From IMG/VR virus record IMGVR_UViG_3300028886_000075: a stretch of 64,000 nucleotides of DNA. The stretch is one strand, 5' to 3'. The position numbers and the translations under genes were made by a program. The stretch's first letter is position 1, and each line of letters starts with the position of its first letter. Of this stretch, positions 1 through 45,840 are shown piece by piece. The notes beneath the pieces were generated by a model that saw nothing but the letters and a program-made list of their open reading frames with translations, was not told the origin of the DNA and did not search any database. The DNA is from a virus. Its lineage: Duplodnaviria > Heunggongvirae > Uroviricota > Caudoviricetes.

Positions 1-123
1 TTAAATGCTTATAAAGATAATGAAGATCGTAAAAATAATCAAGGAAATGGACGTCCTACTGATAAACAATTAGATAAAGTAATTGATTGGTGGAATGACT
101 ATAAAAGTTATAAAATGAAATAA
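1..123 (+). CDS. 3-prime end of an upstream CDS (partial); stop overlaps the next start (TAATG)
   Basis: Open frame 1 runs from the window edge to TAA at 121-123, which overlaps the ATG at 123. Confidence 0.4.
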   Translation, partial: LNAYKDNEDRKNNQGNGRPTDKQLDKVIDWWNDYKSYKMK

Positions 124-1520
124 TGGATCATTTAATAGATAAATATTTAAAGAAGCCTGAAGTAGTTAAAGAACTATTTCAAAAGGAAGTATCAATAAGT
201 CTTAAAGTTGATGGGGCAGCATTTCAGATATCTTATGATAAAGAAAATGATAGCATAACATATCATAAGAGAGGTGGTAGTTCTAAATCTTTAGGTCCTA
301 TTATTGATGAATATACTCAGTTAATGAGAAAGAACATTAATGATGCTATTGATTATTTTGAATCTAAAAAGGAAGTAGTTAAGAAGTATAAATTCTATGC
401 TATTGAAATGTTTAATGATTCATATATTCTTTTAACTGTTATTGATAATGATGACAATATTATTGATGATAGAAACAAGTTAATAGAAATATCAAAATCA
501 TTAGGTATAGATTGTGTTCCTATTTTATTTGAAGGTAAGTTAAATTCAGAACAAATAGAATCATTATTATCTATGATGACATTAGAACCTGAGACTTCTA
601 ATGATGTTTATAAAAAATATTTAACAGATATTTTTGGTAAAGGTGAATATGAAAAGTTCTTAAATGGAGATGAAGTTGAAGGTATAGTATTAACTTGGTC
701 TATTAATGATAAAATACAACAATTTAAAATAATAAATCCTGCATTTAAAACTCGTCATGATAAGGAGATTAAAAATGGTAATGAAGAGTTTAAAAAAGAA
801 ATGGAAGATCTTAGAAAATTATTTGAATTTTTTTATGAATCATTAAATAAATATGGATCTTATCAGTCAGATAATTGGATTGAAAATTTAAATAAGAATT
901 TTATAAATATAGTTAATAAAGAAGATTCAAAATTTAAAGAATTTAATAAGAAAATAAAACCATATTTTAAAGATTTCTTTACATTACAAATTAATAAAGT
1001 TTCAAAAGATATTAAAGAACTTATTGATAATAATGGAGATCAAATGAAATTTTATTATGAAAAATTCTTATTATTATTTAATAAATCAAAGAAACGTAAT
1101 TTTACAATATCTAAAGAATTTCAAAATAAAGTAAATAATTTAATTGAAAAACTTCAATCAAAAAATGAATCACTTAAAACATATACTATACGTAAAATGA
1201 AAAATTTAAATGTTTATATAAAAGAAGAAAAGAAAACAACTGGTTCGGGTTGTGTTAATATGGTTCAAACAATTTTAGATGAATTATCACAAAATCATCC
1301 AAATTGTAAATATGATAAAGAAAAAAATGCATGGGTTGGTAAAGATGCTGATTTATGGAAAGGTGCTGGTCAGTTCTTATATGATTATTTACATGAATTA
1401 GACCAAAAGGATTTTAAAGAAATTATAAATCATTTTGGGTGGGAACAATATATTCCTGACGTAAATGATATACATCCTGCAGAAATATCAATGTGTGTTG
1501 CTTTAGCATTACATTCATAA
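123..1520 (+). CDS. RNA ligase, T4 Rnl1 (RnlA)-like
   Basis: The nucleotidyltransferase motif I region [27 protein letters not shown] parallels T4 Rnl1 [48 protein letters not shown] parallels the Rnl1 EGYV...KIK motifs IV/V. The T4 sequence is recalled from memory. Confidence 0.65.
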   Translation: [465 protein letters not shown]

Positions 1521-1540: not shown

Positions 1541-2281
1541 ATGAAAGACTTAAAACAGTTTATATTAGAATATAAAGCTCGTATAAAAAAATCTTTTGAT
1601 TATAAAACTATTAAACAAACAATAGAATCTTGTAAACCATCATTTTTTGGTAAATCAGTAAGTATGGCAATATTATGGACTCCACAAATTTATTTTAATT
1701 ATGATAAAGGGTGGTCTACAGGTAAACCTAATAAAGAACTTTTTCATGGAAAAGATTATAAAGAAATAACATTAGGTGCATCAACAGTATTATTTATTGA
1801 ATGGTTTGCTAAGAAACATATTTTTAAAGATAATGAATTTACTGGAAGATTAGGTTGTTTTTATCCTAATATTATGAATGATGATGATAAACATAATTGG
1901 GAAGAAGTTGAAAAATATTTAGAATCTAAATATAATGCAAAAACTCAAGATAATTGTGATTATATAAAATTTGATTCTTATGAAGAATTAGAAGAAATTC
2001 TTAAAGATTTAGAAAAAATCATTAATGAATATAATACTAATTATGATAAAAATAATGCAGCATATATTTATTTTGATAAATCTGAAGCTGAACAAAATTC
2101 TTCTGATAAGAAAAAACAATATCAAATATTATCTTGTGAAGAAGAAATTATTAAACTTAATAAACAATTAGAAGACACTAAGAAAGCCGCATCTGCATCA
2201 GATACAGACCTTTCAGTAGTAATTGACATGATTAATGATAAAATTAAATTCTTTAAAAATAAAAAAGATAATATAAAATAA
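1541..2281 (+). CDS. hypothetical protein with capsid-targeting-sequence (CTS)-like N-terminus (MKDLKQFILE)
   Basis: Long ORF with a conserved N-terminal motif shared with about 24 ORFs in the window. Tightly packed. Confidence 0.65.
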   Translation: MKDLKQFILEYKARIKKSFDYKTIKQTIESCKPSFFGKSVSMAILWTPQIYFNYDKGWSTGKPNKELFHGKDYKEITLGASTVLFIEWFAKKHIFKDNEFTGRLGCFYPNIMNDDDKHNWEEVEKYLESKYNAKTQDNCDYIKFDSYEELEEILKDLEKIINEYNTNYDKNNAAYIYFDKSEAEQNSSDKKKQYQILSCEEEIIKLNKQLEDTKKAASASDTDLSVVIDMINDKIKFFKNKKDNIK

Positions 2282-2282
2282 T

Positions 2283-2597
2283 ATGAAAGATATCAAACTT
2301 TATTTGGAAAGTAAATATATAAATGAATCAACTCAAGGAGAAGATTTACATGAAGAAATAGGTCTAGCTCTTAAAGAGTTTGGTAATATCAAAAACGGTT
2401 TTAAGATGGTTAAAATCGATGATATTAAAGATGCGATGTATAAAACAGGATTTGACTTTGTTGAAGAAGATTCATCAGATGAAAAATTAGTATTTGTTGG
2501 TGAATATGTTGATACACAATATGAAGTTACTCTTTATGCAGAAGATCATGTATCAGGGAAATTCAAAATTAAAAATTTCAATGAAATAGAAGTATGA
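2283..2597 (+). CDS. hypothetical protein, CTS-like N-terminus (MKDIKLYLES)
   Basis: ORF whose start lies 2 nt after the upstream stop. Carries the conserved motif. Confidence 0.65.
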   Translation: MKDIKLYLESKYINESTQGEDLHEEIGLALKEFGNIKNGFKMVKIDDIKDAMYKTGFDFVEEDSSDEKLVFVGEYVDTQYEVTLYAEDHVSGKFKIKNFNEIEV

Positions 2598-2905
2598 AAG
2601 ATTTAAATAATTTTATAAATGAATCTATAAGTGATGTTAAGTATGCTATTCGATGGTATTATTATGCAGACGAAAAAATGTCAATATCATATCAGTCATC
2701 ATTAAATAGAGCACAATCATTTGTTCAAAAAATGCAAAAACAAGGTATGAAAATATATGAAATATATGAAATACCTTCAAATAATATAAAGCAATTTAAA
2801 ACTCTTATTAATAAGAAAGGTGATAATGAAAATCAGTTTAAAGAACTTTATAATAATTATTGGAACAAATCAGATATAGAAAAATTTTTAAGTGAAAAAC
2901 AATGA
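2594..2905 (+). CDS. hypothetical protein, CTS-like N-terminus (MKDLNNFINES)
   Basis: ATGA start/stop overlap with the upstream gene. Carries the conserved motif. Confidence 0.65.
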   Translation: MKDLNNFINESISDVKYAIRWYYYADEKMSISYQSSLNRAQSFVQKMQKQGMKIYEIYEIPSNNIKQFKTLINKKGDNENQFKELYNNYWNKSDIEKFLSEKQ

Positions 2906-3195
2906 AAGATATTAATCAATTCATTAATGAAGAAATAAATAAGTATTTCACACAACAAGAAATAGGTGAAATAATGAAAGATATGTGGGCTAAAGATGGT
3001 CAATTTTATAAATTTGTTAAAGATAAAGTTGATTCATTAAAAGCTACTGACATAAATGATTATTTAGATCAATGTTTAGATGATGATAGATGTACAGCAG
3101 AATTTGCAGCATATATAGAAATGGTTATTGGTCGTCATAATTTTAGTTTAGAGCAAGTTCAGAAATTTATAAATACAGAAGATTTAAAAGGATGA
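2902..3195 (+). CDS. hypothetical protein, CTS-like N-terminus (MKDINQFINEE)
   Basis: ATGA overlap with the upstream gene. Carries the conserved motif. Confidence 0.65.
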   Translation: MKDINQFINEEINKYFTQQEIGEIMKDMWAKDGQFYKFVKDKVDSLKATDINDYLDQCLDDDRCTAEFAAYIEMVIGRHNFSLEQVQKFINTEDLKG

Positions 3196-3217
3196 AGAAT
3201 TTATAATTTGTAAACAA

Positions 3218-3769
3218 ATGAAGAACCTAAAAGACATTATATCTGAAAAGTTAATTATAAATAAGAATATAAAGATTAATAAATATAATTATTTTCCAAA
3301 GAATAGAAGAGAACTTACGGAAATTGTTACTAATAAATATAAAGATCTTAAAGATAAAAATGAAGTATTAGATTTAAATGATATTGATGTTTCAAAAATA
3401 AAAGATCTTTCTTATTTATTTGAACTTATATATCCTAAAAAAGTAGATATGAATAACTGGAATGTAAGTAATGTAACAGATATTCATGGGTTATTTTGGA
3501 ATAATCAAATTATTGAAGAAGTTCATATAGAAGACTGGGATGTACGTAATGTAGAAACAGCTTATGGTGCTTTTTATTTTTGTAAAAACATTAAAGAATT
3601 AAATTTAGATAATTGGGAATTCAACAAATGTACAGAATTTGATTTAATGTTCAAAGGATGTAAAGAGTTAGATACTCATTTTACAGATAACTGGAAAATA
3701 ACACAAACAATAACATGTGATAACATGTTTGAAGGTTGTAAATATGCTCCAAAATGGTATAAATTATGA
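3218..3769 (+). CDS. BspA-family (DUF285-type) repeat protein, CTS-like N-terminus MKNLKDIISEKLIINKN
   Basis: Repeats of WNVSNVTDIHGLF / WDVRNVETAYGAF type. First of three tandem paralogs. Confidence 0.7.
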   Translation: MKNLKDIISEKLIINKNIKINKYNYFPKNRRELTEIVTNKYKDLKDKNEVLDLNDIDVSKIKDLSYLFELIYPKKVDMNNWNVSNVTDIHGLFWNNQIIEEVHIEDWDVRNVETAYGAFYFCKNIKELNLDNWEFNKCTEFDLMFKGCKELDTHFTDNWKITQTITCDNMFEGCKYAPKWYKL

Positions 3770-4233
3770 AAAATCTAAAAGACATTATATTAGAAAAATT
3801 AATAATCAATAAAAACACTAAAATTGATAATTATCATTATCATCCTAAAGATAAAGGTGAACTAATGAAATTATTAGATAAACTTATTGAAGAAAGAGGA
3901 TGGGAAGGTAACTTTAATGATATTGATACATCTAATATAACAGATATGTCTATGTTATTTACATTCTCACGTCCAAAGTTTAATGGTGATATATCGGAAT
4001 GGGATGTAAGTAACGTTACCAATATGCGTTTTATGTTCTGTGATACAAAATTCAGTGGCGATATATCAAATTGGGATGTAAGCAATGTTAAATATATGAC
4101 TGAAATGTTTTATGGGTGTAATGATTTTAATTGTAATTTAAATAAATGGGATGTAAGTAAAGTTGAAGATACAAGAGATATGTTTTATGGATGCCCATTA
4201 GAAAAAAATCCACCAAAATGGTATAAAATATAA
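3766..4233 (+). CDS. BspA-family (DUF285-type) repeat protein, CTS-like N-terminus
   Basis: Four or more repeats of GDISxWDVSNVxxMxxMF. ATGA overlap with the upstream paralog. Confidence 0.7.
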   Translation: MKNLKDIILEKLIINKNTKIDNYHYHPKDKGELMKLLDKLIEERGWEGNFNDIDTSNITDMSMLFTFSRPKFNGDISEWDVSNVTNMRFMFCDTKFSGDISNWDVSNVKYMTEMFYGCNDFNCNLNKWDVSKVEDTRDMFYGCPLEKNPPKWYKI

Positions 4234-4245
4234 ATATATTAAACT

Positions 4246-4917
4246 ATGAAAAATCTAAAAGACATCATTTCAGAAAAACTTATAATTAATAAGAATAGTA
4301 AAGTTAAAAAAAATGTTAAGACAACAAATGAACTTAAACAACTTATTAATAAACTTATTGAAGAACGTGGTATAAATGCAGATCTTAATGATATAGACAC
4401 TTCTGAAATAACAGATATGTCATATTTATTTTCTGATTCTAAATTTAATGGAGATATATCTGAATGGAATGTAAGTAATGTAAAAAATATGACATGTATG
4501 TTTAATAATTCTAAATTTAATGGAGATATATCTGAATGGGATGTTAGTAATGTTACTAGAATGAACGGCATGTTTATGCGTAGTAATTTTAATAATAATA
4601 TATCTTATTGGGATGTTAGTAATGTTAAACATATGAGTTTTATGTTTGCTAAAAATAAAAAATTTAATGGAGATATATCTGAATGGGATGTAAGTAATGT
4701 TGAAGACATGGAATGTATGTTTGAATATTCAATTTTTAATGGAGATATATCTAAATGGGATGTAAGTAATGTTACTAATATGAAAGAAATGTTTTATCAT
4801 TCAAAATTTAATGATATAAATGGTGATATCTCTAAATGGAATATTCGTAATGGTGTAAATATGGAACGTATGTTTAAAGGATCACCTATAGAAAATAATC
4901 AACCAAATTTTTATTAA
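4246..4917 (+). CDS. BspA-family (DUF285-type) repeat protein, CTS-like N-terminus
   Basis: Seven repeats of FNGDISEWDVSNVxxMxxMF. Confidence 0.75.
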   Translation: MKNLKDIISEKLIINKNSKVKKNVKTTNELKQLINKLIEERGINADLNDIDTSEITDMSYLFSDSKFNGDISEWNVSNVKNMTCMFNNSKFNGDISEWDVSNVTRMNGMFMRSNFNNNISYWDVSNVKHMSFMFAKNKKFNGDISEWDVSNVEDMECMFEYSIFNGDISKWDVSNVTNMKEMFYHSKFNDINGDISKWNIRNGVNMERMFKGSPIENNQPNFY

Positions 4918-4920
4918 ATA

Positions 4921-4975
4921 TTAAACTATGAAAAACTTATAATTTATAAACAAATGAAGAACCTAAAAGACATCA
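4921..4975. repeat. duplicated 5-prime module (vestigial start 'ttaaactatgaaaaa' plus 37 nt matching 3201-3237 with 1 mismatch)
   Basis: Direct comparison: 3201-3237 'ttataatttgtaaacaaatgaagaacctaaaagacat' against 4938-4974 with one substitution. 4921-4935 matches the 4240-4254 start context. Confidence 0.7.
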
Positions 4976-20489: not shown

Positions 20490-22193
20490 ATGACAAATAA
20501 GCGTTGCTTAATTTATGAAACATTAGGCAAAGTTTCAGATCTTCAGATTGTTGAGTCTGAAAATAGCAACGAAATGCGTCTTCATGGTATATTTGGTGTA
20601 TGTGGAATAAAAAACCAAAATAATCGTGTTTATGATAAAGATAATTACGGTCAAATGGTTGAATCTTTACAAAAAGAAATTCAAGAACATGGATGTCCAG
20701 GTGAATTAGAACACCCTAATTCTATGAATATTAATTTGCAAAATGTTTCACATAAGATAGAAGATATTCAAATGAATGAAGATGGTACAATTACTGGTAC
20801 AATACTTTTGCTTAATACTCCAAGTGGTAAGATTGCAAAAGCTATTGTTGAAGGTGGTTTACCACTTTATATTTCTTCTCGTGGTGCCGGTACAATTACT
20901 AATGAAGGTCGTGTTACGTTATCTACTATTAAGACATATGATCTAGTTGGTACTCCTGGATTTAGTCAAGCTAAACTTACTTTAAAGCCAAATCAAACTC
21001 TTGAATGTCTCAATGAAGGTCTAGATAATGATACAAATATCTGGGCAGTTATAGATGAAGGTAAAGATGATGATGATTTACTTGATAGTAATAATGACAA
21101 AGATAAGGATTCTAATGATAATGAATCTAAGGATAAATCTAAAGAAGAATCTAAGGATAAATCTAAAGAAGAACCAAAAGATAATGAAAATGACGATAAC
21201 AAAAATAATGGCAATGATAATATTGATATGAAAGAATTGAAAGAAGCTATAGATAAACTTACAGAAAAAGTTGAATCTTTAGAAGCTGAACTTCATGTAG
21301 CTCAAGAATCTTTGAATGAGACAAAAGAATCAATTAAGCCAATTAATTATGAAGCAATCGAGAAGTGGTGTACTGAGGAATTTGCTCCATCTTTAAAAAA
21401 TGAATTTAATGAAGATGTAGAAGAAAAAATTCAAAACAGTATCAATGAATCAATTGAATCATTAATGGATAATGTACAAAATTGGATAGTTGAAGAATTT
21501 GCTCCAGAAGTACAAAATTGGGTAGTTGAAGAATTTGCTCCAGAAGTACAAAATTGGGTAGTTGAAGAATTCTCACCTGAAGTACAAAATTGGATAACAG
21601 AAGAATTTGCTCCAGAAGTACAAAATTGGGTAGTTGAAGAATTTGCTCCAGAAGTACAAAATTGGGTAGTTGAAGAATTCTCACCTGAAGTACAAAATTG
21701 GATAACAGAAGAATTTGCTCCAGTTGTTGAAGGTTGGATAACTGAAGAATTTGCTCCAGAACAATCACAAACTATTGAAGCTAAAGTAAATGAAAATGTA
21801 TCTGCATTTATGGAATCTCAAAAGGCAGGTCGTTTAGATGAAATTGATAGCTTATTAGAATCTATTTCTCAAGATAGTAATTCAGATGTAAATAAGATTA
21901 TTAAAGAACAAGCTATTGAAAATAAATATAAAGGAGTTTTTGTTGTAGAAAATATGCCTTCTCAATATACACCTCAATGGGAATTATTAGATGAAGCACG
22001 TCAACAAGAAATAATCCGTACATCAAAAATGTATGATTTCTCTAAAGAAGGTGTTTTAGAATCATTCTGGGCTAACCAAGATTTATCAAAAACTACTGTA
22101 ACTAATAAAGTAAATGAATCAGTTAATCCAATTAATTCATACCAAATGTCTATAGTAGAAAAGATGAAAGCTCTTCGTAATCATGCAATTTAA
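20490..22193 (+). CDS. gp21: prohead protease (T4 gp21-like, peptidase U9 family) fused to an acidic repeat-rich C-terminal (scaffold-like) region
   Basis: The N-terminus aligns by eye with T4 gp21: PGELEHP against LGELNHP, YISSRGAGT against GVSSRGLGS, and DLVGTPGFSQA against DAVWGPSAP. The C-terminus has a KD/E low-complexity stretch and 8 copies of QNWVVEEFAPEV. Confidence 0.8.
   Translation: MTNKRCLIYETLGKVSDLQIVESENSNEMRLHGIFGVCGIKNQNNRVYDKDNYGQMVESLQKEIQEHGCPGELEHPNSMNINLQNVSHKIEDIQMNEDGTITGTILLLNTPSGKIAKAIVEGGLPLYISSRGAGTITNEGRVTLSTIKTYDLVGTPGFSQAKLTLKPNQTLECLNEGLDNDTNIWAVIDEGKDDDDLLDSNNDKDKDSNDNESKDKSKEESKDKSKEEPKDNENDDNKNNGNDNIDMKELKEAIDKLTEKVESLEAELHVAQESLNETKESIKPINYEAIEKWCTEEFAPSLKNEFNEDVEEKIQNSINESIESLMDNVQNWIVEEFAPEVQNWVVEEFAPEVQNWVVEEFSPEVQNWITEEFAPEVQNWVVEEFAPEVQNWVVEEFSPEVQNWITEEFAPVVEGWITEEFAPEQSQTIEAKVNENVSAFMESQKAGRLDEIDSLLESISQDSNSDVNKIIKEQAIENKYKGVFVVENMPSQYTPQWELLDEARQQEIIRTSKMYDFSKEGVLESFWANQDLSKTTVTNKVNESVNPINSYQMSIVEKMKALRNHAI
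21474..21762 (+). repeat. in-frame 36-bp tandem repeat x8 (encodes VQNW[IV][VT]EEF[AS]PE)
   Basis: Direct repeats of gtacaaaattgggtagttgaagaatttgctccagaa with minor variants. Confidence 0.85.
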
Positions 22194-22300: not shown

Positions 22301-24058
22301 ATGTTTAATGAACAAAATGGCGCACAGACATGGGAGAAAATGTTGAAAGAAAACTTCAACGTAACAGACCAGGAAAAACTTAACTGGGTTTCTCAATATG
22401 CTGCTATTCACGAAATTCACGAATCTCAACTTGGAATCAATGGTGGTAACGTAGTAACAAGTACAGCTTATCCAGGTGTTGGTCCTATCTATACAACTCC
22501 AATGAATACTCTTGGTATTGGTAACCCAACTGCTCCAAGTCAATTAGATCCAATGAGCACTGCTCCTTACAATCAAGCTAACCCAACAGGTTCATTCTGG
22601 GGACAAACTCCAGGTTCTGGTGATATTCCAGTATCTACACTTCCAATGGCTCTTAACGTTGCATTGTTAACTATTGGTCTTGAACTTGTACCTGTTATTC
22701 CTGCTAAGGGTCCTTGGGCTATGTTAACATACATGGACTTCCCATACGCTGGTGGTAAACTTGGTCGTGTAAATGAAACATCTTTCGATGGTAAAGGTGA
22801 AAAGAATGAAAACAAACCAATCTACATCAAGATTAAAGGTTTAACACTTCCACAAATCGCTGAAATACGTGAAGCTATGGAAGCTGCTCAAAATCCTGTT
22901 AAAGCTGACGATGCTGTAGTAGTTGCAGGTTTCAAAGGTACATTCATTATGCTTGGTCGTATGGATGCTTGTCCTCTTGTTAAGGTTGTAGAATGCACAG
23001 ATGCAAATACTTCAATAGTTGAAGAATTTAATGCTGCTACATCTGTTGTAATTGGTTCTAAGACAATTACTCTTGCTGCAGGTCAAAAGGTTACTCCTGA
23101 TTTCGTACAAACATCTGTTGATTTAGTTGACGGTTTCGCTAACTTCGCTACAGGTAAGAAAGAATCTATGACACGTGCTCAAAATGAAACTGGTACAGGT
23201 AATGTAATTGGTCTTCGTTTATTCAGTAAGTGGGTTCAAATGGGTTCATACGAAGTTACTGGTACTGTAACTCGTCAACAATTACAAGATCTTCCACTTT
23301 ATGGTGTTGATGCTGTAGGTAAAGTTATGGAAGCTCTTCAAAACGAAATTACACAACACATCAACCAACGTATTCTTGAAAGAGTATTTGCTCTTGGTGT
23401 TACAAATGCTGTACAACAAAAGGCTCGTCAAGGTGTTGATTTGAACTTGTGGATGGGTAAGACAGGTGCTTCTGTTGACATGGCAGATCATTATGCTGGT
23501 GTTCCTCACTTCACAGATATCTATGGTACAGACCATAAACCATTATGGAAAGGTATTTCTAACTCTGAAGTTAACACTTCTGCAGAAAATCTTTCAACAC
23601 GTCAACGTCGTATCATGAGCCGTATCTTAGCTGCTGCTAACTTAATCCAATTGGTAGGTCGTCGTGGTCGTCCAACATGGATCGTTACTAACGGTAAGAT
23701 TGCTTCTGCTCTTCAAGATGTATCTGGTTATGTAGTTGCTCCAATGCTTAATACAATGTCTCAAGCTAATACTCAAAACTTATATCACGCTGGTACAGTT
23801 GCTGGTCTTCAAGTTTATGTAGATCCATATATGGACTGGAATGATACACGTATCTGTATTGGTCGTAAGGGTACAGGTAATGAACCTGGTGTAATATTCA
23901 TGCCATACATTCTTGCTGATACTGTATCTATCACTGCTGAAGGTACAATGGCTCCTAAGATGTTGGTTAACAGCCGTTATGGTATCGCTGAAGCTGGTTT
24001 CTTCCCAGAACTTGCATACTTCACATTGGTTGTTGATTCAGAATTTGATTTGATCTAA
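22301..24058 (+). CDS. gp23: major capsid protein (T4 gp23-like)
   Basis: Several collinear matches to T4 gp23: DLPLYGVDAVGKVMEALQNEITQHINQRILE against LRAVHGMDADAELSGILATEIMLEINREVVD, GRRGRPTWIVTNGKIASALQDV against GRGEGNFIIASRNVVNVLASV, and the C-terminus MPYILADT...RYGIAEAGFFPE against APYVALTP...RYGIGINPFAE. Host-optimal codons. A terminator follows the gene. Confidence 0.88.
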   Translation: MFNEQNGAQTWEKMLKENFNVTDQEKLNWVSQYAAIHEIHESQLGINGGNVVTSTAYPGVGPIYTTPMNTLGIGNPTAPSQLDPMSTAPYNQANPTGSFWGQTPGSGDIPVSTLPMALNVALLTIGLELVPVIPAKGPWAMLTYMDFPYAGGKLGRVNETSFDGKGEKNENKPIYIKIKGLTLPQIAEIREAMEAAQNPVKADDAVVVAGFKGTFIMLGRMDACPLVKVVECTDANTSIVEEFNAATSVVIGSKTITLAAGQKVTPDFVQTSVDLVDGFANFATGKKESMTRAQNETGTGNVIGLRLFSKWVQMGSYEVTGTVTRQQLQDLPLYGVDAVGKVMEALQNEITQHINQRILERVFALGVTNAVQQKARQGVDLNLWMGKTGASVDMADHYAGVPHFTDIYGTDHKPLWKGISNSEVNTSAENLSTRQRRIMSRILAAANLIQLVGRRGRPTWIVTNGKIASALQDVSGYVVAPMLNTMSQANTQNLYHAGTVAGLQVYVDPYMDWNDTRICIGRKGTGNEPGVIFMPYILADTVSITAEGTMAPKMLVNSRYGIAEAGFFPELAYFTLVVDSEFDLI

Positions 24059-39102: not shown

Positions 39103-39333
39103 ATGAAAAATATCGGAGATAAAATTAACGAAGGACTAAATGTTTCAAAATCTTTTGTCTTAAATATGAAAGAACTTGATTACGATAAATTAATTGATTT
39201 TATTAAAGATATGCAATCTAAAAACGAAGACTTTATTGAATTACAAGTTGATTCATCTCGTAAATGGATTGGATATTCATTTTCAAAAGGAAAAACTGAT
39301 AATATTAGATACAATAAAACTGAATTAAATTAA
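39103..39333 (+). CDS. hypothetical protein, CTS-like N-terminus (MKNIGDKINEG)
   Basis: ORF with a weaker copy of the conserved N-terminal motif. Confidence 0.55.
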   Translation: MKNIGDKINEGLNVSKSFVLNMKELDYDKLIDFIKDMQSKNEDFIELQVDSSRKWIGYSFSKGKTDNIRYNKTELN

Positions 39334-39334
39334 T

Positions 39335-39529
39335 ATGAAACAAATAAAAGAATTTATTAATGAATCAAACGAATGGAATCCATCATTAGATTCTCATAAA
39401 GTTGCATATAATAACTTTGTTAAATGGTATGACAAATGTTTAAAACATTTAAATAAAGAAGAAATATTAGATTTACTTAATGGAGCAATTAAAGAAATTG
39501 AAGATGATTCATTAGATATCATAAAATAA
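39335..39529 (+). CDS. hypothetical protein, CTS-like N-terminus (MKQIKEFINES)
   Basis: Conserved N-terminal motif. Confidence 0.6.
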   Translation: MKQIKEFINESNEWNPSLDSHKVAYNNFVKWYDKCLKHLNKEEILDLLNGAIKEIEDDSLDIIK

Positions 39530-39547
39530 ATATATTGAAACTAATTA

Positions 39548-40069
39548 ATGAAATCAATAACTCAATATATATATGAAGCTGTAGAAAATTATAGATTGAA
39601 TTCTGTTGAAGTTACATATAATGTTCAACCAGAAGAATTAATATTACAAGCACCTGAAACATTCCAAGAGTCAGATATCCAACAATACATAGACGATATG
39701 TGGCTCAATCAACTTCCATCTTCTCAAGACTATTCTGAAAAATTCTTTGGAAAAAATAATGATAATATATCTGATGCATATTTTGAATATGATTCATTTG
39801 AACATCTTTCAGTAGAACCTAAAGATTATATTGAATGGAATTCAAAATATGATGTTAAGAAAAGTGGAGATGACATTACATTAGAATACTTTAAAATAAC
39901 AAATCTTAAATATCATATTAATTTTGATAGATTTGATATGGTTGATGTTGATGATGATAATGTAGAAGAAAAACTTAAAGATATATTTAGAACCACAGAA
40001 TCTAATAAAGAAAATGAATATCCTATAGAAATTCAATTTGATGAAGATTCACTTGAATATAGAAAATAA
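39548..40069 (+). CDS. hypothetical acidic protein, CTS-like N-terminus (MKSITQYIYEA)
   Basis: Conserved N-terminal motif. Confidence 0.6.
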   Translation: MKSITQYIYEAVENYRLNSVEVTYNVQPEELILQAPETFQESDIQQYIDDMWLNQLPSSQDYSEKFFGKNNDNISDAYFEYDSFEHLSVEPKDYIEWNSKYDVKKSGDDITLEYFKITNLKYHINFDRFDMVDVDDDNVEEKLKDIFRTTESNKENEYPIEIQFDEDSLEYRK

Positions 40070-40129
40070 ATAAAACAAAATAAAGATATTATATAGAGGC
40101 ATAATACCAAATACATCTATGATTATCTT

Positions 40130-40339
40130 TTGATTACAAAACCTCGATCTGACTGTAATAAACATATTATTAAACGTGAACATTACTGTAAAAAAGACGG
40201 TGAATGGAAACCTAAGAAAAAGTTTAATAGTGAAGAAGAAGCCAATACATGGATAACAAAATATAAAATGTACAAATATACTGCATATATATGTAAAGTC
40301 TGTGGAAAATGGCATATAGGTATTAAAAAGAAAACATAA
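40130..40339 (+). CDS. small zinc-ribbon-like protein
   Basis: CNKH...HYCKK...CKVCGKWH, 69 aa. Confidence 0.45.
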   Translation: MITKPRSDCNKHIIKREHYCKKDGEWKPKKKFNSEEEANTWITKYKMYKYTAYICKVCGKWHIGIKKKT

Positions 40340-40359
40340 AAACATTAAAAAATCAATAT

Positions 40360-40677
40360 ATGAAAGATTTAATTAGTATAATAACAGAATCAAGAAAAGA
40401 AATATGTCCTGAAGTTCAAAATGAATTCGAAAATGATTATGCATATCAATCTTATACAACAACAAAATCAAAATTTGATTATGGATTTTTAACATTTGAT
40501 GCTAATCAAGAATTTTATTCTGTTGTTGGAGTTAATGAAAACAGTGAATTCATTGATTCTTTATGTAATGATTTTAATTTAGATGCAGAAGAATTATTAG
40601 ATTTAAAAGTTGGTGAATCAATAAGTGATAAAAGCCATGGAGATAATTATAACTATTCAATTTTAAGAATTTGGTAA
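40360..40677 (+). CDS. hypothetical protein, CTS-like N-terminus (MKDLISIITES)
   Basis: Conserved N-terminal motif. Confidence 0.6.
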   Translation: MKDLISIITESRKEICPEVQNEFENDYAYQSYTTTKSKFDYGFLTFDANQEFYSVVGVNENSEFIDSLCNDFNLDAEELLDLKVGESISDKSHGDNYNYSILRIW

Positions 40678-40701
40678 AAATATAAAATATAATCACATAT
40701 T

Positions 40702-41196
40702 ATGAAAAATTTAACTGAAAAACTTAATATACAAAATATTAATGAATCAGTCGCAAAAGATATTAAGATTCCACGTAAAGGAAGCACTGTATATCTTTTA
40801 AAAGATGGTGATTCTAAAGCAATACCTGTAAAAGTCAATAATGTCACAAAGGTTAAGAACTCTTGGTATGGACGTTCAGGTGGATATGATGTAATTATTG
40901 AATTAGAAGATAATGAATATAAATTTGATGGCTGGAAAACATCACATTATGCAGACCCAAAATTAGATGAACCTATTCAAGTAGATACAAAATCAGTACA
41001 TGGAATTGGCACTTTTTACGTTGGTACATCTAAAGAAGTAATTTCAGAATTCATAAAGAATGGTGCGACAAAGAAACTTAAAATGTTACTTAAAGAAATA
41101 GAAGATGCAGAAAATCAACTTGCAGAATTAAATCGTCAAAAGAATGAACTTCAACAAAAGATTGACACTGAAATTACAGAATCTTTAAATAAATAA
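40702..41196 (+). CDS. hypothetical protein, CTS-like N-terminus, C-terminal coiled coil
   Basis: MKNLTEKLNIQNINES. C-terminus LKEIEDAENQLAELNRQKNELQQKI. Confidence 0.6.
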   Translation: MKNLTEKLNIQNINESVAKDIKIPRKGSTVYLLKDGDSKAIPVKVNNVTKVKNSWYGRSGGYDVIIELEDNEYKFDGWKTSHYADPKLDEPIQVDTKSVHGIGTFYVGTSKEVISEFIKNGATKKLKMLLKEIEDAENQLAELNRQKNELQQKIDTEITESLNK

Positions 41197-41205
41197 TTTA
41201 TAATT

Positions 41206-41487
41206 ATGAAAGACATTAAAGAAAAACTATTAAGCCAGATTAATGAAGACAGATTTGCATATTCATGGCAAAATGCTTTCATAAATGCTATCATATCATT
41301 AAATGATGTTGATGGTGAAATTCCTTGTCGTGAAATAGTCAATAAATGGTTTAATGATGAACAAGCTCTTCATGAATTATATACATTCTTATATCGTATA
41401 GATTGTAAACCTGAAAAGAAGGATGTAAATTCTATAGTTGAAGCAATTATAAATAAATCATCAAAATTGAAAACTTACAAGATATAA
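41206..41487 (+). CDS. hypothetical protein, CTS-like N-terminus (MKDIKEKLLSQINED)
   Basis: Conserved N-terminal motif. Confidence 0.6.
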   Translation: MKDIKEKLLSQINEDRFAYSWQNAFINAIISLNDVDGEIPCREIVNKWFNDEQALHELYTFLYRIDCKPEKKDVNSIVEAIINKSSKLKTYKI

Positions 41488-41508
41488 AAATATATGAGTT
41501 AAACAAAT

Positions 41509-41772
41509 ATGAAAAATTTAAAAGATAAATTAGTTTTGGAAAATGAAGAATCTGCAATATTTACATTAACTGCTAAAGATTTAGATAAGATACTTTTTTC
41601 ATTATCATTTACTGCTGGGTGGGCTAGCGAAGTTAATTCATATGAAATGAAAGAATATAAGAAACTTTGGGATGAATTAAATAAAGGAGCAAAGAAATCA
41701 TTTGATGCAGATATGTATGTAGATGACTGGGATGATTATGAACTGGCTCATACAGGAAGCTTTAAACATTAA
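41509..41772 (+). CDS. hypothetical protein, CTS-like N-terminus (MKNLKDKLVLENEES)
   Basis: Conserved N-terminal motif. Confidence 0.6.
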   Translation: MKNLKDKLVLENEESAIFTLTAKDLDKILFSLSFTAGWASEVNSYEMKEYKKLWDELNKGAKKSFDADMYVDDWDDYELAHTGSFKH

Positions 41773-41803
41773 TTATATAATAAATTATGAGAATACTTAA
41801 ATA

Positions 41804-42154
41804 ATGAAAGACATTAAAGAATATATTAATGAATCTAAAAATTTCAAATTAGAATCTGATGAACGTCAAGCTTTAGCAGACTTAATTGGTATGTTATGCG
41901 GTAATATTGGAAATGATGAAGATATAAACAAATTAAAATCTGTAATAGATCAATTAAGTAAAGAAGAAATAAAACAATTAGATAATCTTCATGATTGTTT
42001 AGATGATGAAGAAACATATAAGAAAATAAATCGTAATATTATTATTGATGATATTCCATTGATTAAAAAAATATATAAATTAATGGATGATAATAATTTA
42101 TTAGGAGAACAATGGGATCTTATTGATGCTTTAGAGAAAATAAATGAATATTAA
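41804..42154 (+). CDS. hypothetical protein, CTS-like N-terminus (MKDIKEYINES)
   Basis: Conserved N-terminal motif. Confidence 0.6.
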   Translation: MKDIKEYINESKNFKLESDERQALADLIGMLCGNIGNDEDINKLKSVIDQLSKEEIKQLDNLHDCLDDEETYKKINRNIIIDDIPLIKKIYKLMDDNNLLGEQWDLIDALEKINEY

Positions 42155-42156
42155 AT

Positions 42157-42558
42157 ATGAAACAAATAACATCATATTTGTTAGAAGGTCTTCGTATCAA
42201 TAAAGATATTAAAGTTAATTATGAAAGAGATGATATATACAACATTATAATTGCTGCTTATCTTTCTATATATCGTCTTAAATGTTGGACTGAAACATCT
42301 ACATTTAAAAAGAAAATTTTATATATTAAATATGAAGATATATTAAATATTCTTAATGATAATTTTGAATATACATTTACAAAAGACGATATAAAAAGAA
42401 CATCAGGATATATATGGAAAATTGTTAGAAAATATTTAATACCTATTCAGAATATGATTAATGGATATAATGTAATTATTAGAATTGAAGATGAAAAAAT
42501 AACAATTAATTATAAAGAAATTAATGAAAAGTATAAAGACATTTTAAATAAAAAATAA
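42157..42558 (+). CDS. hypothetical protein, CTS-like N-terminus (MKQITSYLLEG)
   Basis: Conserved N-terminal motif. Confidence 0.6.
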   Translation: MKQITSYLLEGLRINKDIKVNYERDDIYNIIIAAYLSIYRLKCWTETSTFKKKILYIKYEDILNILNDNFEYTFTKDDIKRTSGYIWKIVRKYLIPIQNMINGYNVIIRIEDEKITINYKEINEKYKDILNKK

Positions 42559-43496
42559 TGCAATCTTTGAATAACTATATAATAGAAACAAATATAGAAA
42601 ATATTTTTTTGGATAAATTATGTAATCATATATCATTATCATTATATATTAAATATGGTTACGGAATTTATCCATATGTTTCTTTATATGAATCATTTGG
42701 TAATTTTAAGAATACTCATAAAGTATTATATCATATTATTGAAGTATTAAAAAATGAATTCAAGTCTCAAGAAATAGATTGTACTAATGATAATGTATTT
42801 TTCAAGAAAATAAAAATAGATATAGTTAATGAAGATTATATAAGTGCAAGTTATTTAAATATTAATAATGATAAAATAGATATTGAAATATTATGTTTAG
42901 ATAAAGAAATGTTTATTGATAATATTGAAGAATATACTGAATTGATATTACATGAACTTTTACATGGTTATGAAGATTTTAACCGTAAAACAACTAATAA
43001 ACCAGATATATTTCAATTATGGAATGTTGATTATGAAAAATCTTATTTAAATATAAATAATTTTGATAAGATTAAAAGATATATAAGTAGATGTAAATAT
43101 TTTTTAAATTCACAAGAACGTAATGCGTATTTTTCATCTTTAGAATTATCTATTAAGAAAATAATTAAAGATTATCATATTACTGCAGATAATTTAGATT
43201 ATGAAAAATTCAAACATGGAATTAAACGCGAAACATTATGGGAAATTTATTTTGATTTAGGAACATTTATTCTAGGATTAAATAATATAAATAATGAATA
43301 TAAAAAGGAAATAGAAAAACAATATAATTCATTATATAATACAAACAAATCATTTAACGAAATCAAAAAAGAATTAAATAATAAATGGAAAAAATTTGAT
43401 CATAAATTCAATCAGTTAATTCCTAAAATATTATGTAAAAATATACAAATAAAAGAATTTAAAAATTCTTCTTTTAGTTTGAAAAAATTATTATAA
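42558..43496 (+). CDS. hypothetical protein with an HExxH motif (LHELLHGYEDF), CTS-like N-terminus (MQSLNNYIIET)
   Basis: An HELLH pentapeptide is followed by GY. A paralogous HELNHGY is present in the 63029 ORF. Confidence 0.55.
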   Translation: MQSLNNYIIETNIENIFLDKLCNHISLSLYIKYGYGIYPYVSLYESFGNFKNTHKVLYHIIEVLKNEFKSQEIDCTNDNVFFKKIKIDIVNEDYISASYLNINNDKIDIEILCLDKEMFIDNIEEYTELILHELLHGYEDFNRKTTNKPDIFQLWNVDYEKSYLNINNFDKIKRYISRCKYFLNSQERNAYFSSLELSIKKIIKDYHITADNLDYEKFKHGIKRETLWEIYFDLGTFILGLNNINNEYKKEIEKQYNSLYNTNKSFNEIKKELNNKWKKFDHKFNQLIPKILCKNIQIKEFKNSSFSLKKLL

Positions 43497-43508
43497 AAAC
43501 TTTACATT

Positions 43509-44396
43509 ATGAAGTCATTGAACAACTATATATTTGAATCTAAAGAAGTTTCTACAAAATCTAATAAAGAACGTCGTAAGGAATTGGAAAAATGGTTGAA
43601 ACATAAAAAGTATGACGATTATGTTGATACTTTAAATAAGATGCTTGAAGATCCTAAATCAGCTGCATTATTGGAAGATGGTTTTGGGGGAGAACTTGGA
43701 GATACAAAATTAACATTTTCAGTTAAAGAAATTCCAGTATCTCAGTTAATGCCTACACAAAAAGATATAGATTTAGATAAGTCATTAAAACATGCATTAA
43801 CAGATAAAGAATCTTTAATTAAGACTTTTGCAAATCCAATTGAAATCAATAAGCCTATTGTTACTTTTAGAGAGAATTATGTTATAGACGGTCATCATAC
43901 ATGGCTACAAGCTATAGCATTAAATCCAAAAGGAAAAATATTATCATTTAATTATGACGGTGATATTTCTCCAATTCAGATGCTTAAGGCTGTACAAGGA
44001 ACTATAGCAGCAGTTAAAGCTGATAAGAATAATAATAATGGTAAACTTCCATCAAATAATGTAAAAGGTCCTAATTTCTTTGATGAATCATTTGATGAAA
44101 AGAAAATTAGGAAATATATAGAAGATAATCTTAATGAAGACTTAATAGATCAATATATAGAAAAAATAGAAGAATGCTATGATTACGATTCTACTGTTGA
44201 TTATATAGTAGAACGTCTATTAGATATTAAGTCAAATAATTATCCATTTGATACAGCACCAGATAGAAAGAATATGCCACAAGTATTTAAAGGTGGCACA
44301 GATAAAGATGATAAAAGTTCTGCATTACCTGATAAAGAAGGTTCTGCGATGAATAAACTTAAAAATGATACCTTTTATAAAAAAGCTACCATTTAA
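43509..44396 (+). CDS. ParB/sulfiredoxin-fold nuclease-like domain protein, CTS-like N-terminus (MKSLNNYIFES)
   Basis: VSQLMPTQKDID ... PIVTFRENYVIDGHHTWLQAIALN resembles the ParB N-terminal domain (L-PTQ ... DGHHR). Confidence 0.45.
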   Translation: MKSLNNYIFESKEVSTKSNKERRKELEKWLKHKKYDDYVDTLNKMLEDPKSAALLEDGFGGELGDTKLTFSVKEIPVSQLMPTQKDIDLDKSLKHALTDKESLIKTFANPIEINKPIVTFRENYVIDGHHTWLQAIALNPKGKILSFNYDGDISPIQMLKAVQGTIAAVKADKNNNNGKLPSNNVKGPNFFDESFDEKKIRKYIEDNLNEDLIDQYIEKIEECYDYDSTVDYIVERLLDIKSNNYPFDTAPDRKNMPQVFKGGTDKDDKSSALPDKEGSAMNKLKNDTFYKKATI

Positions 44397-44436
44397 ATAA
44401 GTATAAATATGATAAATTTATAAAATCAGTTACAAA

Positions 44437-44892
44437 ATGAAAGATATAGTTAATTATATTACAGAAGCATCTTCATCAAAATTTGATTATTGGAAAGATG
44501 TAATTAAATTTCCTGGATATGAACTTAAAGTATCAAAGAAATACTTAGACAAGAAAATAAATACAAGATATTATCAGGAAGAATTCTTATATCAATATTT
44601 TGGTTGGATTAACCAATGGATTGATAAGAATGTTAAAAAGATTATTAGTATAGTAACTAAAGAAAATAAAGAGTTTCCAAAAGAAATTTCAATATCTTTA
44701 CCAAGTGAATTACATGGTGTTTTACAATTTGACTGGGATTGTGGTTGGGCAGATAATATACCAACAGGATCTCTTCGTGATGTTGAATTAAAAGTAGATA
44801 ATGTTTCACCAGGATCAATGAGTCATAGTTCATTCTATCAGGCACAAGAAGATTTACAAAATTTTAAATTAAAAGATATAATTAAATTTTAG
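44437..44892 (+). CDS. hypothetical protein, CTS-like N-terminus (MKDIVNYITEA)
   Basis: Conserved N-terminal motif. Ends with TAG, a rare stop in this window. Confidence 0.6.
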   Translation: MKDIVNYITEASSSKFDYWKDVIKFPGYELKVSKKYLDKKINTRYYQEEFLYQYFGWINQWIDKNVKKIISIVTKENKEFPKEISISLPSELHGVLQFDWDCGWADNIPTGSLRDVELKVDNVSPGSMSHSSFYQAQEDLQNFKLKDIIKF

Positions 44893-44943
44893 TTTAATAG
44901 ACAATAAATAATATTTTTAATAAATAGATATTAATATTAATTA

Positions 44944-45498
44944 ATGAAAGACATTAAAACATTTATTTCAGAAGCAAAGAAACAAACACCTAAAAAAGAA
45001 TACCCTATGAAAAAGAAAGAAACTTATGGAGATTTAGGTGAAAAATGGTTTGATAAGTGTAAAGACTTTGCTACGGCAGGAAGTACACAATGGACTAAAT
45101 ACGGTATCAATGATTTTAAAGGATTCTTAGAAGATATGGATAAAGAATTCAAACCAGGTGGAGAAGGCCGTTGGAAAAAGGATTGTGAAGTTCGTTGGGA
45201 AATGTGTCAAGCACTTAAAGATAAAGATTTAGATAAATTTGTAAAAATTGCTAAAGAAAACTATGTTGAAAAATTTACTTTTGGTGCACATCCTAATGCT
45301 GATTACACTTATGGATCATATTTTTTAGATACTTATATGCTTCTTAGAACTTACGAATATATTCTTGATGGCAATATGGTAATTCGTAATGGTATTTTAA
45401 ATGCTATCTGGAGAATTGATGATACTATGGATAATTGGTATGATAAATTTATTGATACAGTTCATAAATTAGAAAAACAAGTTCCTGGACATAAATAA
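44944..45498 (+). CDS. hypothetical protein, CTS-like N-terminus (MKDIKTFISEA)
   Basis: Conserved N-terminal motif. Confidence 0.6.
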   Translation: MKDIKTFISEAKKQTPKKEYPMKKKETYGDLGEKWFDKCKDFATAGSTQWTKYGINDFKGFLEDMDKEFKPGGEGRWKKDCEVRWEMCQALKDKDLDKFVKIAKENYVEKFTFGAHPNADYTYGSYFLDTYMLLRTYEYILDGNMVIRNGILNAIWRIDDTMDNWYDKFIDTVHKLEKQVPGHK

Positions 45499-45528
45499 AT
45501 AATATATCAAACATATAAACATATAAAA

Positions 45529-45840
45529 ATGAAACATATTAAGAATTATATATTAGAAAAAAATGAAGATAAAACTTTAAGTGGATTCTGTATCATAGAT
45601 ATGACAGATGAAACATTGATATCTAGGTGGGGAACTGGTGATTTAAGAAAATGTATAACAGAATTACAAAAGCTTAAAAAGGAAGAAGAAGATAAAGAAT
45701 ATTGGATAGTTGCTGAATTTAATGAAATATATGATTTAGAAGATACTGGTAATTATAGAGTATTATCTTCAAGAGAATATAATGAAAGAGAAGATGATTT
45801 TGGTATTAATCCAAAATTTAAAGAGTATATACTTAAATAA
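45529..45840 (+). CDS. hypothetical protein, CTS-like N-terminus (MKHIKNYILEK)
   Basis: Conserved N-terminal motif. Confidence 0.6.
   Translation: MKHIKNYILEKNEDKTLSGFCIIDMTDETLISRWGTGDLRKCITELQKLKKEEEDKEYWIVAEFNEIYDLEDTGNYRVLSSREYNEREDDFGINPKFKEYILK

Follow-up and report, generated by a model that had tools for sequence, protein, structure and literature searches.

RNA repair by the polynucleotide kinase Pnk and the RNA ligase Rnl1 of phage T4 is the textbook answer to an anticodon-nuclease defence. Repair of the T4 style needs new protein synthesis, the very process that an anticodon nuclease attacks. The 64-kb stretch of phage DNA analysed here (the window) begins with genes that raise the question whether a phage could escape from this dependence. 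A preliminary description of the sequence had proposed that two ORFs, a ligase and a kinase, form a tRNA-repair pair of which the kinase half bears a capsid targeting sequence. Both ORFs exist, on the plus strand, and encode 465 and 167 amino acids (Table 1). Taken as a whole, the best explanation of the locus is an RNA-repair pair provided with a presumed capsid-loading tag, an explanation that we consider an even call.

Source of the sequence and gene content of the window

The window is part of an uncultured megaphage of about 25% GC with head genes of the T4 type; this lineage is apparently one of the rumen or gut. The major capsid protein contains a conserved I-H-E-I-H-E|S at residues 36-42 (nt 22406-22426). 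There are no tRNA genes within the window. The region upstream of it was examined on contig L021, which was found by an exact-match DNA scan and of which the last 127 nt are the first 127 nt of the window. The small tagged ORF that precedes the ligase has its start, MKELEQFITEK, in this overlapping contig.

Table 1. Features of the window discussed in the text
Feature	Coordinates	Strand	Characteristics
Small tagged ORF, 3' end	1..122	+	stop overlaps ligase start (TAATG)
Putative RNA ligase ORF, 465 aa	123..1520	+	core, linker, internal tag, add-on domain
Nucleotidyltransferase (adenylyltransferase) domain, aa 1-205	123..737	+	motifs I, III, IV, V
Family-specific all-helical C-terminal domain, aa 206-347	738..1163	+	invariant basic patch
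Internal tag copy, 10 residues, aa 359-368	1197..1226	+	in low-confidence linker of model
Variable add-on domain, aa 375-465	1245..1517	+	end of ligase ORF
Seven tagged ORFs between ligase and kinase	1541..4917	+	ORF calls, Pfam
Putative Pnk-type 5'-OH polynucleotide kinase, 167 aa	4954..5457	+	tag, P-loop, D-x-x-R
Peptidase_S77 prohead protease, T4 gp21 family	20490..22193	+	Pfam 5e-10
Major capsid protein, T4 gp23 family	22301..24058	+	Gp23 match 3e-31
Second tagged cluster, about 14 ORFs with tag or looser variant	39103..45840	+	hypothetical proteins

A putative RNA ligase of a divergent family

The adenylation motif KxDG that had been noticed in the ligase is confirmed by an alignment of 29 homologs, on which all conservation figures for this protein are based. 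Motif I reads K28-V-D30-G31 (nt 204-215), and K28, D30 and G31 are kept in at least 90% of the sequences. The ligase was to be discarded if its motif I lysine disappeared in such an alignment; K28 is present and conserved. Furthermore, E95 (nt 405-407) is nearly invariant, while E186-G187 (nt 678-683) and K202 (nt 726-728) are invariant. By their order and conservation, these residues appear to sit at the places expected for nucleotidyltransferase motifs III, IV and V. The putative motif V contains one invariant lysine, K202, with Ile or Val at position x+2; motif V of Rnl2 has two lysines (K-x-K).

The only Pfam match of the ligase is a marginal one to PF09414, RNA_ligase of the Rnl2 type (E 2e-6, 28.5 bits against a cutoff of 27); matches to PF09414 are precomputed on many of its homologs. 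In an AlphaFold model (pLDDT 85.8), the top structural matches are all RNA ligases. The closest folds are those of Rnl5 and Rnl2, and T4 Rnl1 ranks below Rnl5, Rnl2, REL1, Trl1 and Rnl3. It could be imagined that the ORF encodes a DNA ligase or an mRNA capping enzyme instead. This is very improbable, given that the model has no OB domain, that RNA ligases head the fold ranking and that the Pfam match is to RNA_ligase only.

The preliminary description had called the ligase Rnl1-like, and this assignment has to be abandoned. No match to PF09511 is obtained at E<=0.1, the fold of T4 Rnl1 ranks low, the C-domain differs from that of Rnl1 and from that of any solved ligase, and hhalign aligned nothing between the ligase and T4 Rnl1 (RnlA). 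Against T4 Rnl2, hhalign aligned the motif I region only (E 0.075). Searches of the PDB with the single sequence and with a profile of the 29 sequences retrieved no ligase, and tblastn against GenBank phages found nothing. A structure search with the C-domain matched no solved ligase, Rnl2 included, and full-length Rnl2 (2hvq) aligns with the model no better than its N-domain alone (1s68). The Rnl2-type C-terminal domain, which is needed for nick sealing, is absent. The C-domain of the ligase contains a basic patch that is invariant in the family, F319-x-K321...R325...I329-S-K331-x-F-Q334. In homologous ligases, the add-on domain at the end of the protein is swapped for other small domains or absent.

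On the basis of sequence and model, the ORF is a putative ATP-dependent RNA ligase of a divergent family, in which an Rnl2/Rnl5-like adenylyltransferase is combined with a unique helical C-domain. With 264 representative clusters and its unique C-domain, it defines a compact, previously uncharacterised family of RNA ligases.

Six out of ten long relatives of the ligase are fused to an NMNAT-type HIGH nucleotidyltransferase (GRFQPFHxGH). Such fusions in distant relatives hint at another context. An NMNAT-like gene also precedes the ligase by two or three genes in L021, L006 and L005.

A putative stand-alone polynucleotide kinase

The kinase starts with the tag MKNLKDIILE (aa 1-10, nt 4954-4983), followed by the P-loop GLPGAGKST (G22-T30, nt 5017-5043) and by D46-x-x-R49 (nt 5089-5100). 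In the homologs, G22, G25, G27, K28, T30 and D46 are invariant and S29 is present in at least 90% of the sequences. K28, S29, D46 and R49 align with K15, S16, D35 (the Asp general base) and R38 of T4 Pnk. R131-R132 align near R122 of T4 Pnk; the lid arginine R126 of the latter falls in an indel.

Profile searches matched PF13671 (1e-19) and phrog_505, 'polynucleotide kinase' (7e-24). In the PDB, the best match is the kinase domain of Pnkp1 (1.6e-5), and T4 Pnk (1e-3) and CthPnkp are also retrieved; the NCBIfam matches are PSTK on top, bacterial Pnkp and PNK-3'Pase. There are 396 matching phage records, and nearly all among the matches listed are annotated as polynucleotide kinase. A fused C-terminal HAD 3'-phosphatase domain is absent, and 167 residues leave no room for one; all 53 homologs are 105-185 aa long. 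The likeness to the kinase half of T4 Pnk, without a phosphatase, is as had been described. The protein has T4 Pnk, Pnkp1, bacterial Pnkp, PNKP and PSTK as neighbours, so that it sits with the polynucleotide kinases. It is a putative stand-alone kinase of the T4 Pnk type, and not the dNMP or thymidylate kinase that had been named as the alternative.

Gene linkage and a candidate 3'-end-healing partner

The kinase starts 5 nt past the ligase in three related loci (L001, L002, L012) and lies 0.7-1.7 kb downstream in three others (L014, L013, L006) and 3.4 kb downstream in the window, in each case on the same strand. No kinase is found within 8-10 kb of the ligase in nine related loci. The tagged ORFs that separate both genes in the window are 1541-2281, 2283-2597, 2594-2905, 2902-3195, 3218-3769, 3766-4233 and 4246-4917, the last three encoding DUF285 repeat proteins. 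In related phages, this stretch is shorter or missing.

It had been suggested to look for a 3'-phosphatase elsewhere in the genome. A Pfam scan of approximately 50 ORFs of the window revealed no 2H, HD, metallophosphatase, HAD, RtcB or Tpt1 protein. A candidate is found on L021, shortly before the window begins: a tagged HAD hydrolase that ends 5.6 kb upstream of the ligase. Such a tagged HAD (DxDxT) hydrolase, with the motif FDIDDT, is present in 14 loci at a distance of 3-9 kb upstream of the ligase, also where the ligase is only 34% identical. Its profile matches are PF00702 (3e-8) and phrog_415, 'polynucleotide kinase' (6e-10). In hhalign, it aligns with T4 Pnk in the motif IV region only (probability 34%), and there are no fused kinase-HAD relatives among its top 120 homologs. 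For the HAD protein there are 924 homologs, of which the top 120 have at least 74% identity, versus 58 for the ligase and 53 for the kinase. Because it is so much more conserved and widespread than either enzyme, its role may be that of a core nucleotidase and not of a partner in repair.

In L021, L001 and L006, the ligase is directly preceded by a Pol-beta-like ORF, recognised by eye only from a GS...GDIDVAV motif. Its identification as RlaP (PF10127) is not supported, as there is no Pfam, NCBIfam or PDB sequence match.

The neighbourhood also has to be weighed against a reading in which tRNA repair is not a joint task of ligase and kinase. The ligase would then seal nicks or have some other specialised role, in connection with a nucleotide- or NAD-linked counter-defence, and the kinase would act on a small molecule, on aminoacyl-tRNA (as PSTK does) or on DNA ends. 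T4 Rnl2, the relative closest to the ligase in fold, has itself no known biological role, and this counts in favour of such a reading, as do the NMNAT-type fusions, the NMNAT-like gene close upstream, the first place of PSTK among the NCBIfam matches of the kinase and the nine loci without a kinase near the ligase. However, the two genes directly adjoin and are co-directional in several phages, the kinase retains the Pnk-specific D-x-x-R, and sets of kinase, ligase and HAD protein are the standard RNA-repair complement of jumbo phages (PMC7824862). All in all, an absence of cooperation seems unlikely.

A ten-residue tag shared by many accessory proteins

In a six-frame translation of the window, the strict pattern M-K-x-[LI]-x-x-[FYI]-[IL]-x-E occurs 18 times versus 0.05 expected, always on the plus strand and at the start of an ORF in all but one case. 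More than 20 ORFs of the window carry the tag, and further ones are found upstream in L021. Kinase orthologs of as little as about 60% identity still have the tag, and it is also conserved in 13 related loci. A repeated DNA element or a promoter is ruled out: codons and upstream sequences differ between copies, and selection therefore acts on the peptide. The conservation of the tag is non-random and, to judge from these sequences, resides at the peptide level.

The T4 internal proteins IPII and IPIII start with MKTYQEFIAE, to which the tag is equal in length, spacing, register and [IL]-x-E end. The observation that the kinase starts with a sequence close to the T4 capsid targeting sequence thus holds; that only the kinase half would be tagged does not, since the copy at aa 359-368 of the ligase had been missed. 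T-even internal proteins, which are injected to counter host defences, have nothing but such a leader in common (PMC12373910; PMC5694885). In the megaphage lineage, the tag is internal or C-terminal in an NMNAT-like protein (L021:7713-8456) and occurs as two tandem copies in L006:5314-6381.

These unusual positions are relevant for a rival interpretation, according to which ligase and kinase do repair RNA together, but as ordinary cytoplasmic proteins. The tag would then have nothing to do with capsid loading: it might be a helix that docks to a partner shared by these proteins, a leader for regulation or degradation, or a leftover of cassettes shuffled among the starts of paralogous genes. 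T4-type targeting sequences are known at N-termini only, and the copy in the ligase is internal, after the core, while the two proteins just mentioned carry theirs internally, C-terminally or in tandem. Moreover, more than 20 tagged ORFs in 64 kb, with more upstream, are many for a capsid cargo. Against a cytoplasmic role stand the match with the IPII/IPIII leader and the presence of gp21-family protease and gp23-family capsid genes in the window. Furthermore, the helicase, topoisomerase, sheath, capsid and sigma-like proteins of the window are all without the tag, and tagged loci are hypervariable among related phages, like the T-even ip loci. We consider a purely cytoplasmic function less likely than not.

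A possible model of pre-loaded RNA repair

Most likely, the kinase heals the 5' ends and the ligase does the sealing in a pathway that repairs RNA breaks. The stand-alone HAD phosphatase is probably a third member. The target of the pathway would be tRNA or another RNA cut by host ribonuclease defences; the scenario of tRNA-Lys cleaved by PrrC applies to this phage by analogy only. The kinase would add a phosphate to the 5'-OH end and the candidate HAD phosphatase would strip the 3' or 2',3'-cyclic phosphate, whereupon the ligase, adenylylated on Lys28, would join 3'-OH to 5'-phosphate.

Capsid delivery of the tagged repair enzymes is a plausible inference. The three proteins belong to a large accessory gene set marked by the tag. 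The products of this set would be taken up into the prohead, be cut after Glu10 by the gp21-family protease and leave the capsid together with the DNA. In the ligase, where the tag follows the catalytic core, such a cut would at the same time set the add-on domain free. If the repair enzymes are indeed pre-loaded, the dependence on new synthesis would be gone, which would be a new tactic in the arms race.

More speculatively, the tag may serve dozens of accessory proteins as a modular address label, placed N-terminally, C-terminally or between fused domains, and among these a complete split RNA-repair kit of a Pnk-type kinase, a HAD phosphatase and a ligase of a new family. RNA repair, like other functions directed against host defence, would in that case arrive along with the DNA, ahead of all phage gene expression, and the genome sequence would directly reveal which proteins are injected. 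This extended proposal is a tentative one, and we would sooner expect it to fail than to hold. The tag nevertheless offers a simple sequence rule to predict candidate injected proteins in uncultured giant phages.

Comparison with known systems

T4 Pnk (PseT) and Rnl1 (RnlA), which repair tRNA-Lys cut by PrrC, likewise combine a phage 5'-kinase with an ATP-dependent RNA ligase, and the order of events, with the ends healed first and sealed afterwards, is likely shared. The kinase has the P-loop, the Asp general base and the Arg in common with T4 Pnk. T4 Pnk contains a fused HAD phosphatase, whereas the kinase of the window is without one and the separate HAD protein is no more than a candidate partner. 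T4 Pnk and Rnl1 are not known to carry a capsid leader, and they are synthesised once the cell has been infected. For the kinase, the best solved relative is the kinase domain of Pnkp1, known from the bacterial Pnkp/Hen1 and Pnkp1-Rnl-Hen1 repair systems. The ligase differs from T4 Rnl2, kinetoplastid REL1 and the Naegleria enzyme NgrRnl (Rnl5) in that it has neither the Rnl2-type C-domain nor the Rnl5-type N-domain; instead, it possesses a helical domain of 140 aa without structural match.

RNA-repair sets of ligase, Pnk and HAD protein have already been described in jumbo phages (Iyer et al. 2021, PMC7824862). As here, the HAD protein stands alone and a Pol-beta-type gene is located beside the ligase, although the Pol-beta-like ORF of the present loci is not a PF10127 RlaP. 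Capsid-leader tags on repair enzymes are not described in that work.

Polyvalent proteins of phages and conjugative elements are multi-domain accessory proteins for which packaging, delivery with the DNA and separation by a protease have been proposed (Iyer et al. 2017, PMC5512222). The architecture of ligase, tag and add-on domain resembles a minimal version of these. That work found no RNA ligases among them, and their joints are embedded peptidase domains, whereas here they are short leader motifs.

The closest parallel for the tag is found in the T-even internal proteins IPI, IPII and IPIII. Their N-terminal leader of 10 residues has M-K at positions 1-2, an aromatic residue at 7, Ile or Leu at 8 and Glu at 10, as here. 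Both systems also share hypervariable loci, a gp21-family protease and proteins with nothing but the leader in common. Unlike in the T4 internal proteins, the leader of the megaphage sits on recognisable enzymes (kinase, HAD and PRTase-like proteins) and on dozens of ORFs, also at internal or C-terminal positions. Known T4 internal proteins are small GmrSD inhibitors (PMC12373910); if the present proposal is true, the cargo of T4-type capsid targeting would be widened from small inhibitors to enzymes.

Phage origin and head genes

The window is phage DNA, with a GC content of about 25% and nearly all coding on the plus strand. Besides genes for a capsid protein and a prohead protease, it has those for a tail sheath, a helicase and a subunit of topoisomerase II. 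Its capsid protein shares 30-36% identity with the capsid proteins of a 462-kb uncultured phage, Sphingomonas phage PAU, Tenacibaculum jumbo phages and Lak megaphages, and the contigs bearing ligase or kinase homologs are metagenomic and reach 474 kb, which makes the source an uncultured jumbo or megaphage. The window begins at the same base as a near-identical contig, L004, and an exact-match scan showed nt 1-127 to be identical to the final 127 nt (L021 10429-10555) of a contig of 160,858 bp, which comes from the sample that also gave L004; this overlap looks like a k-mer assembly break. The window start is thus an assembly breakpoint and not a genome end.

Features of the window and of related metagenomic loci (L handles)
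Feature	Position	Strand	Remarks
RNA ligase	123-1520		465 aa
Polynucleotide kinase	4954-5457		167 aa
DUF285 (BspA-like repeat) proteins, three in tandem	3218-3769, 3766-4233, 4246-4917	+	each: tag, then shared KLIINKNxKI linker
Prohead protease	20490-22193		Peptidase_S77 (gp21 family)
Major capsid protein	22301-24058		T4 gp23 family
denV-like pyrimidine-dimer glycosylase	31718-32155	+	
MazG-domain protein	32641-33414	-	
NMNAT-like HIGH nucleotidyltransferase	51892-52470	+	phrog_3462 nicotinamide-nucleotide adenylyltransferase
Macro-domain protein, strongly DarG antitoxin-like (DNA ADP-ribosyl glycohydrolase)	54321-54836	+	NCBIfam 2.6e-45; Pfam Macro 2e-11; phrog_335 'phosphatase'
Protein with sigma-70 region 2 match	57673-58758	+	
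277-aa protein, C-terminal phosphoribosyltransferase domain	62168-63001	+	N-terminus MKNLGDLIKES fits tag
NMNAT-like protein upstream of ligase	L021 7713-8456		C-terminal tag copy ...LKSLKNYILESIK
L006 ortholog of the latter	L006 5314-6381		two tandem internal tag copies, then extra domain
Tagged ~294-aa ORF	L021 9453-10337; L001 9115-9999; L006 6388-7272		Pol-beta-type nucleotidyltransferase signature GS...GDIDVAV
Distant ligase relatives P0156, P0166, P0181, P0199, P0204, P0216			670-1040 aa; two-domain ligase core, C-terminal GRFQPFHxGH (NMNAT-type) HIGH nucleotidyltransferase

An RNA ligase and a polynucleotide kinase

The ligase ORF is intact, its start codon overlapping the stop of the ORF before it (TAATG). 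The lysine of motif I, K28-V-D-G, is indeed present. An alignment of 29 homologs, the most distant 34% identical, shows at least 90% conservation of K28, D30, G31 and E95 and no variation at E186, G187 and K202; the order of these residues is the one that nucleotidyltransferase motifs I, III, IV and V would have. The Rnl1 likeness proposed in the preliminary description was not recovered, since the Pfam Rnl1 model is unmatched and the sole Pfam match is PF09414 RNA_ligase (Rnl2/DRB0094 type), barely over threshold (28.5 versus 27 bits). Plain sequence and profile searches found neither a solved ligase nor a GenBank phage homolog. The best structural matches of an alignment-based AlphaFold model (pLDDT 85.8) are RNA ligases, with T4 Rnl2 first (Foldseek, 2.5e-6), followed by NgrRnl, Trl1-LIG and T4 Rnl1. 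The best-supported reading is an RNA ligase of a new family.

The kinase matches PF13671 (1e-19), phrog_505 'polynucleotide kinase' (7e-24) and, in the PDB, Pnkp1 (1.6e-5), T4 Pnk (1e-3) and the CthPnkp kinase domain (0.015). It also matches 396 phage records, nearly all of those listed being annotated as polynucleotide kinase, and the NCBIfam models PSTK, bacterial Pnkp and PNK-3'Pase, each under the full-length cutoff. In a multiple alignment, K28, S29, D46 and R49 correspond to T4 Pnk K15, S16, D35 and R38, and D93/T95/N96 to D85/T86/N87, while R131-R132 adjoin R122 and T4 R126 falls in an indel. These T4 residues are reportedly essential, according to mutational work by Wang and Shuman. 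The described resemblance to the T4 Pnk kinase half stands, as does the lack of a phosphatase domain, and there is no grouping with dNMP or thymidylate kinases.

In three loci with a ligase 78% identical (L001, L002 and L012), 5 nt separate the ligase stop from the kinase start; the kinase lies 0.7-1.7 kb downstream in L014, L013 and L006, and 3.4 kb downstream in the window and L004. Wherever linked, both genes share one strand, and the DNA between them consists of variable small tagged ORFs. Nine other related loci have no kinase within 8-10 kb of the ligase. One of the ligase loci, L010, and the kinase homolog P0100 are both recorded on a contig of 376,291 bp, so that this genome probably carries a kinase elsewhere. 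The linkage is real in the closer clade and looser beyond. In one of the two main rival readings, the ligase may work in a context other than an RNA-repair set: six of ten long ligase relatives carry a fused NMNAT-type HIGH nucleotidyltransferase.

A candidate 3'-end phosphatase

A search for a 3'-phosphatase elsewhere in the genome gave a divided answer: about 50 window ORFs scanned contained no phosphoesterase, and a candidate gene lies upstream in the overlapping 160,858-bp contig, with 5,620 nt between its end and the start of the ligase. It encodes a HAD hydrolase (213-214 aa); 14 related loci have this gene 3-9 kb upstream of their ligase, which in some of them is only 34-35% identical. 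The protein's motif I reads FDIDDT and is followed by T/S-A-R and then by K...DDD; the protein matches PF00702 (3e-8) and phrog_415 'polynucleotide kinase' (6e-10); its likeness to the T4 Pnk phosphatase is confined to the motif IV region. None of the best 120 of its 924 homologs, all at least 74% identical, is fused to a kinase. As this family far exceeds those of the ligase and kinase in both size and conservation, the HAD protein may instead be a core nucleotidase.

A leader-like tag on accessory proteins

The kinase does carry the tag, its N-terminus being MKNLKDIILE. A six-frame translation of the window has 18 matches to M-K-x-[LIMF]-x-x-[FYILV]-[ILV]-x-E (0.05 expected); 17 of them are at ORF starts (83 called ORFs), all on the plus strand and in two clusters (1541-5457 and 39103-45840). 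Codons and upstream DNA of the tagged ORFs differ, so conservation is at the peptide level. The tag is retained in kinase orthologs to about 60% identity and present on the HAD protein, and 13 related loci have 6-14 tagged ORFs per 20 kb. The putative repair set sits within a hypervariable array of tagged accessory genes. The A/T-rich 30 nt before the start codons of tagged ORFs hold no recognisable Shine-Dalgarno sequence, and many window genes overlap by ATGA or TAATG, which may reflect translation initiation in the low-GC host. An AAA ATPase ORF (28192-29826) begins with MKPNFLSFIESRNKFINES, which is tag-like, out of register or duplicated. DUF285 is fused to the ligase itself in the relatives P0012, P0018, P0034 and P0040.

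In the ligase, the core is followed by a low-confidence linker, a tag copy (aa 359-368) and a 91-aa add-on domain. Of 29 homologs, 13 have the strict pattern at this position, or about 17 when looser variants seen in the alignment are counted; what follows the motif is either a domain of 87-107 aa and varying identity or just 4-7 residues. A free-standing window ORF (2902-3195) is homologous to one such domain. ORF 1541-2281, with a tag-like LKDLEKIINE mid-protein (2000-2029), may be another fused cargo pair. If the tag were both a protease site and a targeting site, proteins that carry it internally or at the C-terminus would be fusions of cargo that are severed from each other inside the head. 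We know of no T4 precedent for a targeting sequence that is not N-terminal. The capsid protein has a conserved IHEIHE/S near its N-terminus (aa 36-42, nt 22406-22426; identical in L008), which follows the same [I]-x-E rule as the tag and could be a maturation cleavage site.

The DarG-like protein could counter DarT-type defence, and the NMNAT-like and phosphoribosyltransferase-domain products of the window may serve NAD+ or nucleotide salvage. In L001 the tagged Pol-beta-like ORF is the immediate upstream neighbour of the ligase; in L021 and L006 one other ORF separates the two. Pfam, NCBIfam and the PDB gave no match to it, and an assignment as RlaP was not supported (PF10127 unmatched).

Comparison with known systems

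The T4 genome gives MKTYQEFIAE as the start of both IPII and IPIII, which shares with the tag its length, the M-K start, an aromatic residue at 7, Ile at 8 and Glu at 10. In T4, such leaders direct their proteins to the prohead, and gp21 cuts them off (PMC5694885); in T-even internal proteins, which are injected anti-defence factors, the leader is the sole common feature (PMC12373910). Because of this parallel, capsid loading and injection of the tagged proteins is a reasonable inference, though, in the other main rival reading, the tag may have a different role. The Pnk-type kinase, the new-family ligase and possibly the HAD phosphatase are best read as a split end-healing and sealing set, and such a set is a known jumbo-phage counter-defence component (PMC7824862). 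A survey of polyvalent proteins found RNA ligases absent from packaged multi-domain proteins (PMC5512222), and in the literature we found no RNA-repair enzyme described as bearing a capsid-leader tag.
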